Below are positions 9,538 through 24,283 of a stretch of 64,000 bases of DNA, one piece after another. Under the pieces are notes generated by a model. The model worked only from the letters and a program-made list of their open reading frames with translations. It did not search any database and was not told where the DNA came from. Source of the stretch: an uncultured delta proteobacterium (GTDB lineage Bacteria; Desulfobacterota; Desulfomonilia; Desulfomonilales; Desulfomonilaceae); the NCBI GenBank assembly GCA_963789265.1, contig CAWBKB010000003.1, positions 352,001-416,000 on the forward strand, read 5' to 3'. Position numbers and translations under genes: made by a program. Every line of letters starts with the position of its first letter. Position 1 is the stretch's first letter.

Positions 9538-9564
9538 TACTTTTGCCATTCGACTTACCCTAGC

Positions 9565-9715
9565 CTAAACGCCCGTCTTCTGGCTTTCGGGTTATCCTCC
9601 GCCTGCCCTTCCCATCCGGTTTAGACCGGACAGTGGCTATGCAGGCTTCGTAACCGATTACAGCGGCGGGACCGCCACGGATTTACACCGTGTTCCGATA
9701 GCGTCCAGACTTTGT
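9565..9715 (-). promoter_or_regulatory. Cobalamin riboswitch
   Basis: Minus strand GGAACACGGTGTAAATCCGTGGCGGTCCCGCCGCTGTAA...GCCACTG...TGGGAAGG...AAGCCAGAAGAC (B12 box); boundaries approximate. Confidence 0.92.
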
Positions 9716-9765
9716 GCTGCATATTTAGCATTAAGCCGGTTCGGGCTGTCAAGGAAAAAGTCGCC

Positions 9766-16974: not shown

Positions 16975-17177
16975 TGAGGAGCGGCCGTATGCATTCAGTT
17001 ACAGCCCGAATTTGCGGATGGCTTCGTGGGGTGGGCTTTCTAGCCCGCCATTGAACAGGGGGTTCCCCGGCAGGCAGTCCCGCGCCTCGTGGGACTGCCC
17101 CACAAGATTGGATGGTTACGAGCGGCCAGCTTTTCTTATTGACACTCTTGGGCAGGTAATGCAAAAATAGTAGAATT

Positions 17178-18871: not shown

Positions 18872-18990
18872 TGCGGAACCTCATACGATCGAAATTATCG
18901 AAAGTGATCACTGATTAATTGGTGGGTGCCACTGCTGGGCAAGGCAGCAGTGGCACCCGGCTCGAAACGAGACACCATGTTCAGGAAATC

Positions 18991-19325
18991 GAGTGCTGAT
19001 ACCAGTGCGCCATCAAACAAGTGACAATCCCCGCGAGGATATGGTGGGGCAGGCATCCTGCCTGCCATTGGTCACCCCGGACTTCGATCCGGGGTCCAGT
19101 CTGGATGCTCGCGTACGCGGGCATGACGACAGGCAAGATGCCTGTCCCACTAAAAACACGATGTCACTTGTTTGAAAGCGAATCGGTATGAGTACTCCTT
19201 TTCGCAAATACGGTGAGGTTAAGAACCCGGTCCAGAAGAAGATTGCTTAGCTGCGCTCGCAATGACAGGTAGTGGGAATGTCATTGCGAGGAGTGAAATC
19301 CCGCGTCCCTCGGGAAAGCAATCTC
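18991..19325. repeat. Nested palindromic repeats (MITE/REP-like) followed by a family A copy
   Basis: TCAAACAAGTGACA/TGTCACTTGTTTGA outer IR enclosing a family B IR and an inner CCCCGGA-CTTCGA-TCCGGGG hairpin. Confidence 0.7.
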
Positions 19326-20001: not shown

Positions 20002-20500
20002 GATCGGAGCACCTCCTGTGAGTCGTCTGAATTCAGCACGTTTGACGGATGATTTCAGGAATTTCGCCCCAAGTGCACGTGCAAGCCCAACCCAGGGCGT
20101 GATCCAATGGGAGTGCTGACATCCCAAACCGAATCGTCGCAAGATCGGGAATGCCTTGAGGACTTCTGTGGCCGCGTAATCGCCACATTGTCCCGTCCGT
20201 AAAATACACCGAAATCCCTAGTTGTAACAACTGCCGGTAGTGTCCTAATTTGAATTTCAGGATTTAGAGGGAGAGAGCGTACGTGTACCTGAACTACTTA
20301 GCCAATTTACTCTTCTCCGGTCCATTCTTGAACGTTGAGTTGGATTTCATCATTAAGGACTGCCTTTTTCTGCTCGGGGTCAAGACCAGTTAAGACTTGT
20401 TGGTACGCTTCCGGTTGGTTTCCTGGCTTTTACTTTTCCTACGCCAATTGGCCTTCCTTCACTGATCAATTCCCATTCATATTCTTTTCCATTCATTGAA

Positions 20501-20827
20501 TTATCCTTCCTTTCTTTGATGTTCCGCTACAATTGCAGCGCGTACCGCATTCAAAGGAGAGTCCACCGGGCCTTGATGCAGAACAGCAAAGAACTTGCGC
20601 TTGCTGGACTTCTCGTCTGTGACATAAGACCAAGCATAACAGCGGGTAGCTGTAGGGTGCCCCTCAACATCGAATACCTGGACTTCCCCTTCCCAGACAG
20701 TCTTACCCTGAAAAACCTCTCTTACAGGCACAGATTCGACCCACGTAGCCTTGCAGCAGTGGAGATCGCGAATGGCTTTGATGAGGGCCTTGATAGGGGC
20801 TTCGGTGTTAGATTTTGATGAATTCAT
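20501..20827 (-). CDS. Hypothetical passenger protein (108 aa)
   Basis: GGAG RBS; well-formed alpha/beta pattern (WEGEVQVFD..GHP...CYAWS); inside the element. Confidence 0.8.
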   Translation of the reverse strand: MNSSKSNTEAPIKALIKAIRDLHCCKATWVESVPVREVFQGKTVWEGEVQVFDVEGHPTATRCYAWSYVTDEKSSKRKFFAVLHQGPVDSPLNAVRAAIVAEHQRKEG

Positions 20828-20945: not shown

Positions 20946-21072
20946 TTGACAATATCATCATAACTAAGTAGAATAAGGAAACTTATAAATGGGGAGATGC
21001 CTCATGGCAGACGTGCTAAAATTGCGAGAAACTGCTTGACAACCTCAGTGAGAAGAGTTACATTTTTCTCAC
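20946..21072 (+). promoter_or_regulatory. Two tandem sigma70-like promoters with a palindrome over the second -10 box
   Basis: TTGACA-17-TAGAAT (20946-20974); TTGACA-17-TACATT (21036-21064); GTGAGAA-N11-TTCTCAC (21048-21072). Confidence 0.65.
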
Positions 21073-21105: not shown

Positions 21106-21888
21106 ATGATCATGGTTGAGGCTGCGAAAAGGAAAGAAAGAAAAGGTCGAGCAATCGCACTAGGTCTCGTGGATGCCTTGAGGATGGTGGAGCAAATTCA
21201 CCGACAGGGTGCGGGATCTGACGTTCCTAAAACTTCGCTTGGGCATATACTTGGGTCCAAACCAACTAGCAGCCTCTTTGATCGAAAAGTCGCCGCGTTG
21301 AAGTCCTATGGACTCATAGAGACACGGGGAGAAATGATTGCCTTAACCCCATTAGGCAAAACTTACGCGATGCCCACAAGCGCAGAAGAGAAAAGCCAAA
21401 TAGCGCTCCAGGCTTTCAGGGAGGTTTCGTTATTCGATAGGCTATTGAGCCAATATAACGGGAATCCCCTACCTGAAATTAATCAATTCTTTTATAACCA
21501 GGTGGCAAGCACTTATGGAATTTCCAATGAGGAAGTGGCCAAATGGATAAAGGAATTTATGGGAGCAGCGCGGCACACTGGTTGTCTCGTTTCAGAACAA
21601 GGACATGATGTTGTTCGTCTTCCCGACCCTGTTGGTGCACCTTTACCTCAACTTAAAGGAGATGCACCGACGATGAACATTCAAGAAACACAAGAATCTT
21701 TTGAAATGGTCAGTTTGAGAATTGAGGGGGCACAAATGACAGTGAACGTTCCTGACAAGGTGGACCCTAATCTTCTCAAAGAAACGATTGGCGCAACAGA
21801 AGACGCTTTAGAGCTTTTGCGTAGAAAGTGGAAGCGGTTAACAGGGCAGCCTTCTCCAACCGATCTAGCTAAAACGCCTCAGAATTAG
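21106..21888 (+). CDS. Hypothetical passenger protein with a predicted winged-helix-like N-terminal domain
   Basis: AAGGAG RBS; VAALKSYGLIE....IALTPLG wing pattern. Confidence 0.75.
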   Translation: MIMVEAAKRKERKGRAIALGLVDALRMVEQIHRQGAGSDVPKTSLGHILGSKPTSSLFDRKVAALKSYGLIETRGEMIALTPLGKTYAMPTSAEEKSQIALQAFREVSLFDRLLSQYNGNPLPEINQFFYNQVASTYGISNEEVAKWIKEFMGAARHTGCLVSEQGHDVVRLPDPVGAPLPQLKGDAPTMNIQETQESFEMVSLRIEGAQMTVNVPDKVDPNLLKETIGATEDALELLRRKWKRLTGQPSPTDLAKTPQN

Positions 21889-21965
21889 GGGGCCATAATG
21901 CGAAGACCCCGCAGCCTGGATCACGCCAATGAATACAGACTACAGGGTCGCGTCGGATTCACAGT

Positions 21966-22036
21966 GGGGCCTGCATGGTGCCTTCCCGGACTTTACACCC
22001 AGAGGAAGCGCGGTTCGAATCCGCCAGGCTCCACCA
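21966..22036 (+). ncRNA. Atypical tRNA-like element (8-bp acceptor stem, 4-bp T-stem, G3:U70, no D-stem)
   Basis: GGGGCCTG/CAGGCTCC plus ACCA; GCGG-TTCGAAT-CCGC; central CTTCC/GGAAG helix. Confidence 0.65.
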
Positions 22037-22070
22037 CATCTGAGTATAAGACATACTCAGGGAGAATTCA

Positions 22071-22895
22071 ATGAATAAGTTGGGGTTGGATAAGCAAACG
22101 GCAGTTATAAGTGCGCTGGTTGAAGGTGTCTCCATTCGCTCCATAGAGCGCATGACTGGAGTTCACCGGGACACAATTATGCGATTGATGGTACGCGTAG
22201 GTGACGGTTGTCAACGGCTCATGGACGAGAAGATGCGAAGTCTTCCCTGTAAGCATCTTCAACTTGACGAGATATGGTGTTATGTCGGCAAGAAGCAGCG
22301 CCACGTGAAAGACACCGACGATTCTTCTACGGTTGGGGACTTCTACACCTGGGTTGCTATCGACTCTGCCACGAAGCTGATTCCATCTTACAGGGTCGGG
22401 AAACGGGACGCTGAGACAGGACAGGCTTTTGTTGACGACTTGGCTGACCGCTTGGCTAACCGAGTTCAGATCAGTTCAGATGGTCTCAACATCTATGTGG
22501 ATGCTATTGAAGGGTCCTTTGGAGCAGACGTAGACTATGCCCAAATTGTAAAGTTCTATGAAGCGGAACCGATTGGACCCGGTAGATACTCGCCTCCCAA
22601 GGTCGTGAAGGTCGAAAAGTCGTATATCGCTGGGAATCCCGACTTGAATATTGCCTCTACCTCTTATATCGAAAGACAAAATCTGACGATGCGCATGGCG
22701 ATGCGCCGGTTTACCCGGCTGACCAATGCGTTCAGCAAGAAGGTTGAGAACCTGAAAGCTGCCGTGGCCCTGCATTTCGCCCATTACAACTTTGTGCGGG
22801 TTCACAAGACACTGAGAGTGACACCTGCGATGGAAGCAGGGATATCAAACAGACTGTGGAGCATCCGGGAAATGGTAGAGATGATAGGCGACTGA
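22071..22895 (+). CDS. IS1-family DDE transposase (single ORF, N-terminal HTH)
   Basis: VEGVSIRSIERMTGVHRDTI HTH; QLDEIWCYVGKK, SSDG...Y, STSYIERQNLTMR...RFTRLTNAFSKK. Confidence 0.93.
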   Translation: MNKLGLDKQTAVISALVEGVSIRSIERMTGVHRDTIMRLMVRVGDGCQRLMDEKMRSLPCKHLQLDEIWCYVGKKQRHVKDTDDSSTVGDFYTWVAIDSATKLIPSYRVGKRDAETGQAFVDDLADRLANRVQISSDGLNIYVDAIEGSFGADVDYAQIVKFYEAEPIGPGRYSPPKVVKVEKSYIAGNPDLNIASTSYIERQNLTMRMAMRRFTRLTNAFSKKVENLKAAVALHFAHYNFVRVHKTLRVTPAMEAGISNRLWSIREMVEMIGD

Positions 22896-23489
22896 TTACC
22901 GATTCTTCTTTCTTGAAAGCTTTGTTAGTGCAGCTTTACTTTTACGCTTCGATTTGTCGAACCCTCTGGCGGCCCCGGAAGAGCTGGGCTGACGAATAAT
23001 TTGGGGGCGATTCTGGGGATTTTCAGGGTGTTCAGGATGCGATATGCTGGGGATGTCGATTGTACATGTTCCCGTGAATCCGTCATAGGTGAAATAAGTA
23101 TTTCTCAGTACATCCCTTCCGACTAGCATACCTATACGTCCGACAAGCGGATCGGCCATCTCGCAGACCCATTTGTTCGATATCCAAAAATTACTGCCAT
23201 CGAAGGTGAAATCTACGGAATAAACTTTACAAAGTTCGAGGCTATGGGCTCCCTGTATAGGGATTTTATCCGCCGCCTGCAAACCAAGTTGTGCGGCCAA
23301 ATCTGCTGATATGGCTGTAATTGATGCGCCCGTATCAATAAGCGCTATCGTCTGAATTTCGGTTGATCCTCCGGTAAGCTGAGCAACAGATATAGGGACC
23401 TTGAGAGAGACATTCAACACCGGTCCCATGCCCAACAACTTATTCCAAGGACCCGGGATGATGCAGCGCCTAGGAATAAACTGGGGCAT
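22896..23489 (-). CDS. Retropepsin-like aspartic protease with a basic C-terminal tail
   Basis: ALIDTGASITAI catalytic motif and MLVGRDVL motif. Confidence 0.85.
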   Translation of the reverse strand: MPQFIPRRCIIPGPWNKLLGMGPVLNVSLKVPISVAQLTGGSTEIQTIALIDTGASITAISADLAAQLGLQAADKIPIQGAHSLELCKVYSVDFTFDGSNFWISNKWVCEMADPLVGRIGMLVGRDVLRNTYFTYDGFTGTCTIDIPSISHPEHPENPQNRPQIIRQPSSSGAARGFDKSKRKSKAALTKLSRKKNR

Positions 23490-23733
23490 GAAATAATCCT
23501 AGAGTCAAGTTTACAGATATCTCAATTGGTTCACGCTTTTCCGTGATTTGCCTCACTAGAATCTGAGCTGACTGTGTGGCCTTAACCCCCTGTTCATACG
23601 CCTCAGCGAAAGACTCAAAGAATCCTAAAAGTTTTTGCTGATGAATAACTACCCATTTCCCTTTATGATCGACAAGCCATTCTCGCCAATGCTCGTCAAA
23701 CCATTCAATTTCCTTATCGAGATAGTCGGCCAT
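23470..23733 (-). CDS. Small DUF5678-like protein, coupled to the protease gene
   Basis: E.EWF..H..EW...HKGKWVVI....LLGFF...EAY..G pattern; GGAGG RBS; 20-nt overlap with the protease ORF. Confidence 0.7.
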   Translation of the reverse strand: MADYLDKEIEWFDEHWREWLVDHKGKWVVIHQQKLLGFFESFAEAYEQGVKATQSAQILVRQITEKREPIEISVNLTLGLFHAPVYS

Positions 23734-24283
23734 GATGAAACCTCCGATGATTGATCAGCCGAAACCATTCCTAAGATAAAATTAATAGATTGAACGATTC
23801 AAGTCAAATAGTTTCCAGGTTGTAGCGGAAAGTCGAGAAAAGAAACCCTGAGGTACACGTCCCCTAATTGATACTCCATATCTTATCACGGCAATCCAAA
23901 TTAGGACACTACCCAACTGCCGACTAATGGCATTCCAAAGGAGTTCAAGCCATTTCGCAACTTAGCAGACATGTTTCAGGGTTATTGGGAGATAACTGTG
24001 CATCGGGCAATCAGGCCCGCGGTCCGGGCGGGATCACCGTCCCGCGAGACGCGAGATGCGCGGAAAATGCAGAGAAAAACAATAGCTAGTCCAACGCCAC
24101 GTGAGCCATCGCAGCGTACAGTCAAGCTGGAATTGTCCTCCCTATTGCATGCCGGAATTTGCTATACCCTTTCGCATTAGGTGTGGAGAAAATAGAATTC
24201 TCCGCGGTCTCTGCGTTCTCCGCGGTAAATTACTACGAAATAAGGAGGCAATCCCCCCCGGGGATTACCCAGGGAGAAAAAGG

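Follow-up and report, generated by a model that had tools for sequence, protein, structure and literature searches.

The RNAs known to mimic tRNA are transfer-messenger RNA (tmRNA), the ends of viral RNAs and a few animal non-coding RNAs. The uses to which such mimicry is put are varied. tRNAs punctuate the transcripts of mitochondria, and mascRNA does likewise for MALAT1, with RNase P generating the 3' end of the upstream RNA. The RNA genome of turnip yellow mosaic virus carries at its 3' end a tRNA-like structure that accepts valine. Where the amino acid is alanine, the signal is simple: alanyl-tRNA synthetase (AlaRS) reads the pair G3:U70 together with A73, and G3:U70 suffices for the enzyme even in minihelices. 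I know of no insertion sequence in which a tRNA mimic is a conserved part of the transposase unit. The subject of this report is a tRNA-like element found in the window, by which I mean the whole stretch of DNA that was analysed, 64,000 nucleotides from an uncultured delta proteobacterium of the Desulfomonilaceae (GenBank assembly GCA_963789265.1, contig CAWBKB010000003.1, positions 352,001 to 416,000). The element lies within a transposon of the IS1 family, a short distance upstream of the transposase gene. Judged by its conservation, it is a member of a family of transposon-borne tRNA mimics, and comparison with the RNAs just described sets that family apart as a new one among tRNA-like RNAs. 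Its anticodon-like loop, UAC at its core, is matched to frozen motifs in the transposase gene, GUA at codon 160 and GUAGR nearby, a coupling that, as read from aligned genes, is a new observation as well.

The element occupies positions 21966..22036 of the window, 71 nt on the + strand, the strand of all its parts. Reading from the 5' end, one meets an acceptor stem, GGGGCCT/AGGCTCC (21966-21972 with 22026-22032), that contains G3:U70; a mini D-stem of two pairs, G8-C16 and C9-G15 (21973-21974 with 21980-21981), closing the loop ATGGT; an extended anticodon-like arm (21982-22008), whose loop of 8-9 nt is ACTTTACA at 21990-21997; and, directly after that arm with no variable arm between, a T arm (22010-22024) in which the T-loop TTCGAAT (22014-22020) sits on a GCGG/CCGC stem. 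A73 stands at 22033, CCA is encoded at 22034-22036, and 34 nt separate the CCA from the ATG of the transposase at 22071. Length, G3:U70, discriminator A, encoded CCA, T-loop and gap had all been described in an initial annotation of this DNA, made from the sequence alone, and all are confirmed. The same annotation had seen no D-stem and had drawn an 8-bp acceptor stem with a 4-bp T stem (8/4 geometry), and here it must be amended. RNAalifold predicts the 2-bp mini D-stem, which covaries in the family, and the family is built on a 7/5 plan, with the outer T-stem pair standard in 61 of 65 aligned copies. The window copy has C.C at that outer pair, as does one L178 copy and none other of the 65. 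G8 of the window copy is thereby freed to pair with C60, and the 8/4 drawing becomes possible. The 8/4 look is a quirk of this one copy.

Between the element and the ribosome-binding site of the transposase lies a small hairpin, CTGAGTAT / ATACTCAG (22040..22060, + strand), after which comes GGGAG at 22060-22064. L092-L099 have a hairpin in the equivalent place too, though of another sequence. The folding energy of the window element is ordinary (z = -0.71), and 45 of 200 shuffled sequences fold equally well. It is conservation, not folding energy, that takes the element beyond chance.

That conservation was sought in loci around relatives of the transposase, 80 each from contigs representing one genome per species, from metagenomes and from viral contigs. 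A script that required seven acceptor pairs beside a T arm with four stem pairs yielded elements of 67-70 nt, and 51 of these seeds went into a covariance model, R1. The model matches 9 of the 80 genome loci, 5 of the 80 viral loci and 48 of the 80 metagenome loci; two of these last have the element in tandem, and a contig end truncates one further metagenome locus. Family members score 41-84 bits (61.4 bits for the window copy), against at most 33 bits for the ordinary tRNAs in the loci examined, and members that took no part in the seed (L097, L129, L132 and L165, and relatives L174-L182) score 42-81 bits. The hosts belong to many phyla, and soil, sediment and freshwater bacteria are where the family is common. 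Nearly always the element is 21-66 nt upstream of an IS1-family transposase gene. The window's own genome has one copy; among sequencing runs, this DNA is listed for three soil DNA runs of one study and for no RNA run. A search of 151 related genomes located the element in 8 of them, at 10 places, with the transposase directly downstream at 8 of the 10; of the two remaining places, one (L179) looks decayed and the other (L180) sits at a contig end. Other tRNAs may stand close by: at L180 an odd long-arm tRNA with anticodon UAU (1579-1681) begins 6 nt after the element, and at L175, on the reverse strand, a normal-looking tRNA-Leu(UAG) ends 7 nt before it, in the manner of a tRNA operon.

The family members, 65 of them exclusive of 5 additional viral copies, were aligned by fitting to R1 (alignment A3). 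Standard pairs fill 91.6% of cells, as compared with 73.6% in shuffles and 43-59% in slid controls, but the percentages of paired cells are inflated, since seeds were picked for pairing and A3 was fitted to the model, and to that extent they weigh less in favour of the reading I shall propose. The compensatory changes are not inflated in this way. Both sides have changed at 16 of 19 pairs, and none of 500 shuffles reaches any of the five measures used. Covariation is seen at acceptor pairs 4 to 7 and at each of the five pairs of the T stem; the outermost T-stem pair, for one, is found as CG (31), AU (13), GC (7) and UA (5). RNAalifold adds a stem that R1 lacks, two pairs directly after the acceptor stem, of which the second occurs as GC (22), AU (14), CG (11) and UA (10) and which closes a loop of 5-11 nt where GG is nearly always present. 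A covarying stem with a GG loop in this position amounts to a minimal D arm. The anticodon-like arm is the irregular part: its top five pairs are paired in 73.8% of cells, and, read by eye, it is extended by 3-5 more pairs below an internal loop. With 65 conserved copies and changes that compensate one another, the suggestion in the initial annotation that the element mimics tRNA is supported.

Amid this variation some bases do not move. G1:C72 is found in 64 of 65 copies, and G2:C71, G3:U70 and A73 in all 65. The core of the loop, UACA, is nearly as rigid, with 63 of 65 copies having C at column 37, as many having A at column 38, and UAC present in 57 of 65. Immediately 5' of G1, 52 of 65 copies have U. 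CCA, in contrast, is encoded in 25 of 65, so that this part of the initial description holds for the window copy and fails as a mark of the family. While the pairs beside it covary, the third pair is never replaced by G-C or A-U, which argues that the G.U pair itself is under selection and that the + strand RNA is the functional one. Comparative evidence of this kind indicates that the alanine identity set is under strict selection, and it suggests that RNAs of the family are probably charged with alanine.

How does such an RNA stand beside those already described? It shares with canonical elongator tRNAs the 7-bp acceptor stem, the 5-bp T stem (99.6% and 98.8% of cells paired, subject to the same inflation) and the TTCRANY-type T-loop, which is TTCGA or TTCAA in 60 of 65 copies. 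In place of a D stem of 3-4 bp there is only the covarying 2-bp stem, and in place of an anticodon loop of 7 nt that has U33 and a purine at position 37 there is C37 throughout nearly all of the family and, in the window, a longer loop. tmRNA (SsrA) comes closer. Shared features are the acceptor end GGGG.../...CUCCA, in which G3:U70 and A73 occur, a D region that is reduced but retains GG, and a normal T arm. The element is presumably an AlaRS substrate as well, and three family members align with the two ends of the Rfam tmRNA models at 19-32 bits (9.4 bits for the window copy), below the gathering score of 47. Yet the element is contiguous, about 70 nt long, its halves 50 nt apart with one arm between them, and it has no message-like domain, no tag reading frame and no internal pseudoknots. 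A further difference is the anticodon-like arm and its conserved loop, and the host possesses a separate, normal tmRNA.

The mascRNA and MEN-beta RNAs (RF01684) resemble the element in being small, in the reduction of the D arm, in lacking a working anticodon and in lying directly after the end of a structured RNA. Six family members score 28.3-34.4 bits with RF01684, below its gathering score of 42.5; the window copy has no match to it at E <= 10. By analogy, the element likely shares the logic of mascRNA, RNase P making the 3' end of the RNA upstream. It differs in being bacterial and borne by a transposon, in its alanine identity, and in a loop matched to the gene downstream. Plant-virus RNAs with tRNA-like structures, that of turnip yellow mosaic virus for instance, offer another parallel: there too the RNA of a selfish element carries a chargeable mimic, its anticodon triplet of valine type, next to a pseudoknotted domain. 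In the present case, however, the mimic is in the 5' leader of a message from a DNA transposon and bears identity bases for alanine.

There remain the allo-tRNAs, with which the initial annotation had linked the element. The irregular tRNAs of Mukai et al. 2017 (PMC5389517), some of them near transposon genes, are likewise non-canonical, come from soil and sediment bacteria and in some cases have G3:U70, and the authors suspected some of having no use in translation and of being tied to transposable elements. The family described here has neither an 8/4 nor a 9/3 split, its D stem is 2 bp, and it has no long variable arm or other serine-type architecture. Searched rows of the supplementary tables of PMC5389517 gave two matches to the loop word TTTACA and 24 tRNA0 rows, all unlike the element family, so that the link to allo-tRNAs does not hold as far as those rows extend. 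A search of the literature on allo-tRNAs, on tRNA-like RNAs and on transposases found no description of the family.

The element family is invisible to annotation practice, whether by standard tRNA finding or by Rfam. The initial annotation had recommended scans with ARAGORN and with covariance models. In the window ARAGORN reports two tRNAs, neither of them the element, and it calls just 8 copies in the family, with odd anticodons, four of them as tRNA-Stop(tta) and one as tRNA-Pyl(cta). No Rfam model reaches its gathering score at the element; the highest match below threshold is tRNA-Sec, at 22.1 bits (gathering score 47), and the canonical tRNA model RF00005 has no match at E <= 10 within 21800-22200.

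The transposase gene itself supplies the second line of evidence. When 155 transposase genes were aligned by codon, 131 columns had a conserved residue, and in element-carrying genes just two of these are synonymously frozen: Val160 (GTA in 52 of 56) and Gly171 (GGT in 51 of 54). Each belongs to a copy of one motif. Site 1 is codon Val160 with the two following nucleotides, GUAAA (22548..22552, + strand), complementary to the loop sequence YYUAC; in the window the complementarity extends to 8 nt, ACTTTACA (21990-21997) against TGTAAAGT (22547-22554). Site 2 is an out-of-frame GUAGA within Gly171-Arg172, GGT AGA (22582..22586, + strand). Each is an instance of GUARR, the complement of loop bases 33-37, and a scan of all positions finds GUARR kept in at least 75% of loci at exactly these two places, 52/52 and 49/52. 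At site 2 it is the nucleotides that are kept, even as the residues change: GGT AGG, CGT AGG in viral L195, AGT AGG in L075. Arg172 is encoded by AGR in 49 of 57 element-carrying genes and mostly by CGN in genes without the element.

It is too much to ask of shared ancestry that it explain the freeze at codon 160. Of the 14 remaining conserved Val columns in these genes, 12 have GTA as their rarest or joint-rarest codon, used 0-5 times per column. Moreover, the codon goes with the loop. Where the loop has UAC, codon 160 is GTA without exception (52 of 52); where the element has another loop, it never is (0 of 5). In L016, with GAC in the loop, the codon is GTT, which could pair with that triplet. 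At codon 160 a sister clade, with the same terminal repeat and no element, uses GTT (14), GTC (3), GTA (4) and ATA (3); its site 2 reads GGN CGN. In L061 and L072, of another clade with more distant IS1-family transposases, a long-arm UAU tRNA lies upstream (1177-1261 and 504-592, respectively), and the column of codon 160 is ATA. The 108-aa accessory gene that travels with the transposase has no frozen codon.

Other causes of the frozen motifs were considered and set aside. A local hairpin in the mRNA would account for both sites, but RNAalifold gives -0.48 kcal/mol and no conserved fold. An antisense promoter would account for GTA, the reverse complement of ATY-GTA being -10-like in 38 of 49 loci; there is no conserved -35 at the right distance, and site 2, 30 nt off, is in my interpretation wrongly spaced to be one. 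Nor is the GGTAG of site 2 an echo of the transposon end GGTAGTG, given a sister clade that has the same end and lacks site 2. The four loci with UGC-type loops have no common GCARR motif; in three of the four a GCA lies three codons upstream, too weak a pattern to count.

I propose that the element is a conserved tRNA mimic in the leader of the transposase message, dependent on tRNA processing, probably alanylated, and coupled to the expression of the transposase. Of the explanations considered I favour this one, tentatively, and would not yet call it probable. The RNA would be transcribed together with the passenger genes upstream and the transposase gene. Enzymes of tRNA processing would then excise the element, RNase P cutting at G1, the 3' end being trimmed, and CCA being added where it is not encoded. 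Excision would separate the transposase reading frame from upstream transcription and set the 5' end of its message. The released RNA would be charged by alanyl-tRNA synthetase, and its loop, YYUAC, would act on the frozen GUARR at codon 160 and at codons 171-172, tuning the amount of transposase. Base pairing that ignores the reading frame suits both sites better than ordinary decoding does, since site 1 has GUA as a codon and site 2 has it out of frame. A more specific form of the idea, which I put forward as doubtful, is that a private, alanine-charged mimic is matched to GUA-160 and GUAGR, that its charging state or its amount gates or recodes the synthesis of transposase, and that other clades of the transposon family would use a different private tRNA, UAU with AUA, at the same codon position.

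Several observations weigh against the proposed coupling and should be set out together. The clade that carries the element is essentially one, so that independent events linking loop and codon are few, and contrasts outside it are limited to L016, L033/L075 and viral L195. Within the clade, L150 and L161 have no element and keep GTA, L150 keeping GGTAGG besides; L100, its upstream sequence truncated at 110 nt, retains GTA and site 2 alike. GTA is also found in 18 of 66 loci scored as negative, a figure inflated by element carriers (L108, L112, L121) and by loci whose upstream DNA is cut (L096, L149). GUA is not a rare codon, making up 15% of the Val codons of the host. Five base pairs are few for a stable contact between RNAs, CCUAC loops pair well only with site 2, and three of nine CUUAC loci have a C.A mismatch there. 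Finally, in many loci a terminator-like hairpin precedes the element by 5-10 nt and would limit transcription reading through from upstream.

An alternative view leaves the matter to the ribosome. On that account the element is a private tRNA that reads GUA-160 during translation and, having been given alanine by virtue of G3:U70, produces Val160Ala or makes translation depend on the element. The perfect match of UAC loops to an in-frame GUA, the GAC loop that goes with GTT in L016, and the UAU tRNAs upstream of genes with ATA in the same column (L061, L072) would all suit a decoder, and so would the extended arm, which, if I read it rightly by eye as 5 bp, an internal loop and 3-5 bp, has the length of the usual anticodon-plus-D stack. 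The difficulty is that standard numbering places UAC at 35-37 rather than 34-36, with C37 almost invariant, and that ARAGORN reads the anticodon of four copies as UUA and of one as CUA, all of which disfavours ordinary decoding. Anticodon stems that are standard in 73.8% of cells and the 8-9-nt loop of the window type do not help, nor does a second GUA that is out of frame. Besides, GUA is not rare in the host, which has a tRNA-Val(UAC), and no relative has Ala at column 160. The match of loop to codon does lend indirect support to the recoding RNA suggested in the initial annotation, but I regard a private decoder as unlikely.

Next in order, and unlikely too, is the possibility that the element is punctuation and nothing else, a processing signal that splits the message of the passenger gene from that of the transposase, the loop and the frozen codons having nothing to do with each other. 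Its position speaks for it. The element lies between the 260-aa passenger gene and the transposase, and no promoter-like or terminator-like site was found on the + strand between the two genes, judging from consensus matches alone; the sole + strand promoter-like sites, similarly judged, are found upstream of the 260-aa gene at 20946-20974 and 21036-21064. The arrangement suggests that the 260-aa gene, the element and the transposase are probably co-transcribed, and it makes a role as a signal for RNase P and 3' processing plausible, within the preferred model as well as apart from it. The structured domain directly upstream would shield the new 3' end, the element has a stack of acceptor stem and T arm, U stands at -1 in 52 of 65 copies, and mascRNA and the tRNA-like ends of tmRNA are the nearest models in Rfam, albeit below gathering scores (28-34 bits in 6 members, and 19-32 bits). 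RNase P, however, needs neither G3:U70 nor A73 nor a conserved loop, and a mere signal for it would leave unexplained why these are frozen (65/65, 65/65, and UACA in 57/65) and why two GUARR motifs are frozen with them.

If ARAGORN is taken at its word, the element would be cargo of a different sort, a nonsense suppressor that inserts alanine through the anticodon UUA (ochre) or CUA (amber). Positions 34-36 are indeed UUA in 48 of 65 copies and CUA in 9 of 65, and the tRNA-Stop(tta) and tRNA-Pyl(cta) calls follow suit. Allo-tRNAs with G3:U70 put Ala at amber codons in E. coli, according to PMC5389517 and PMC7609411. I consider a suppressor highly improbable nonetheless. C37, weak anticodon stems and a reduced D arm are poor equipment for it, conservation centres on UACA and not on the first positions of the loop, and the transposase frame is intact and needs no read-through, close relatives ending it with TGA, TAA or TAG.

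A decoy for tRNA-targeting toxins or for anticodon nucleases, or a substrate for some use of Ala-tRNA outside the ribosome, would make sense of strict alanine identity combined with a non-canonical loop, and irregular tRNAs near toxin-antitoxin genes are reported in PMC5389517. No toxin-antitoxin or defence family is recognizable among the neighbours, where PADLOC yields only weak hits (E 4e-4 or worse), and the fixed place upstream of the transposase and the frozen codons would go unexplained; I give this possibility very little credence. Least credible of all, to the point where I dismiss it, is the case that the initial annotation had named as fatal to its own, a unique decayed copy of an ordinary tRNA without conservation (or what is left of an integration site): over 18 nt the host's tRNA-Cys(GCA) has the same T arm, but the match is confined to that arm and derivation from tRNA-Cys is ruled out by the family, whose 65 related copies in many phyla have compensatory changes and invariant identity bases, and the element is internal to the transposon rather than at its ends, with one copy in its own genome and a patchy distribution in relatives that goes with the transposase.

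What makes the preferred model worth pursuing is the combination of three features under strict selection: the alanine identity bases, the core of the loop, and two synonymous-site motifs in a neighbouring gene. Together they give a hypothesis, testable by mutation, that links the charging or processing of tRNA to the control of transposition. If the idea of gating or recoding were true, it would represent a general and undescribed way for mobile DNA to sense the state of translation in the cell. The family may also account for unexplained irregular tRNAs that lie beside transposon genes.

The structured RNA domain upstream of the element is reduced in the window (21872..21965, + strand), as seen by alignment with 19 other loci that have the domain in full. 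The window version consists of a small hairpin at about 21875-21894, a long hairpin at 21905-21949, and GCGTCGGATTC at 21950-21960. The full domain, about 110 nt, has a small hairpin, an outer helix and a long hairpin, and in those other loci the outer helix (AAUCGCC paired with GGCGAUU) has compensatory changes of three kinds. The domain matches no Rfam family. In six other loci it is preceded by a promoter resembling TTGACA-17-TATAAT, as read by eye. The large leader domain of the 19 loci (L013, L015, L153 and L169 among them) opens, some 160 nt before the element, with a strong site resembling one for ribosome binding and a conserved AUGAGAAGAG, which spells Met-Arg-Arg with two AGA codons. 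There may be a short leader open reading frame (ORF) here; insertions and deletions in the domain whose lengths are not divisible by three speak against any conserved peptide. A coding frame through the element itself was considered and rejected. The window has one, a 58-aa ORF (21898-22074) that overlaps the start of the transposase as ATGA, and its frame is open across the element in 24 of 49 loci, as against 21 and 7 for the other two frames.

The transposon that houses all this is 3,678 bp long. Its ends were located by means of an empty site in a congener (G001:C58), which joins window positions 20236 and 23914; a search for repeats had been unconvincing, with local alignment at the level of chance. 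At the ends so defined stand the left terminal inverted repeat, GGTAGTGTCCTAATTTG (20236..20252, + strand, 17 bp), and a perfect copy of it on the right (23897..23913, - strand), flanked by an 8-bp target duplication, CAACTGCC, at 20228-20235 and 23914-23921. The initial annotation had placed the element inside a transposon, and the repeats, the duplication and the empty site together bear it out. The same right-hand repeat is present in most of 124 loci matched by pattern.

The transposase (22071..22895, + strand) is encoded by a single intact ORF of 274 aa. It scores 30.6 bits with PF03400 (DDE_Tnp_IS1) in Pfam, where the cut-off is 24.1, and 62.9 with transpos_IS1 in NCBIfam, below the cut-off of 100, and it has at least 8000 relatives in the protein collection (8000 of the 8000 candidates scored). 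An IS1-type DDE transposase, inverted repeats, a target duplication and an empty site are thus all found, as expected of the IS1 family. Members of that family with a single ORF and passenger genes, which have a subgroup naming in ISfinder, have in common with the present transposon the DDE transposase, repeats that start with GGT and the 8-bp target duplication. The window transposon differs from them in its conserved structured RNA, in the 108-aa gene and in the low NCBIfam score.

Upstream of the structured RNA, the passenger gene of 260 aa (21106..21888, + strand) is the ORF directly before the element region, and a homologue 53% identical is in the same place in L136. Beyond the transposase, on the - strand, are an aspartyl-protease-like passenger ORF (22896-23489), which ends directly against the transposase stop codon, and a DUF5678-like passenger ORF (23470-23733).

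The 108-aa accessory gene (20501..20827, - strand) is conserved alongside the transposase family and was detected by tblastn in about 45 loci. Its usual place is some 1.1 kb upstream of the transposase, in opposite orientation; some loci have it immediately downstream. The protein has no family in Pfam, NCBIfam or PADLOC. AlphaFold2 predicts a helix, four long strands and a helix (predicted local distance difference test, pLDDT, 88.5). There is no sequence match to solved structures at E < 0.2 and no Foldseek match at E <= 0.001, and the best VIA result, Z 4.8 with a root-mean-square deviation of 3.2 over 67 residues, represents a generic alpha+beta arrangement. Just past the stop codon of this gene lies a 16-nt inverted copy (94%) of the ribosome-binding site and start of the transposase (20491-20506 versus 22061-22076), which may be chance or a remnant.

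Outside the transposon, two short repeat families, at 18996-19215 and 16987-17120, have dozens of copies in the same genome at 80-97% identity and more in congeners. The first is inside a long imperfect palindrome (18973-19215). Both are probably miniature mobile elements or elements of the repetitive extragenic palindromic (REP) kind. A cobalamin riboswitch lies at 9553-9741 of the window (- strand, 82.8 bits).

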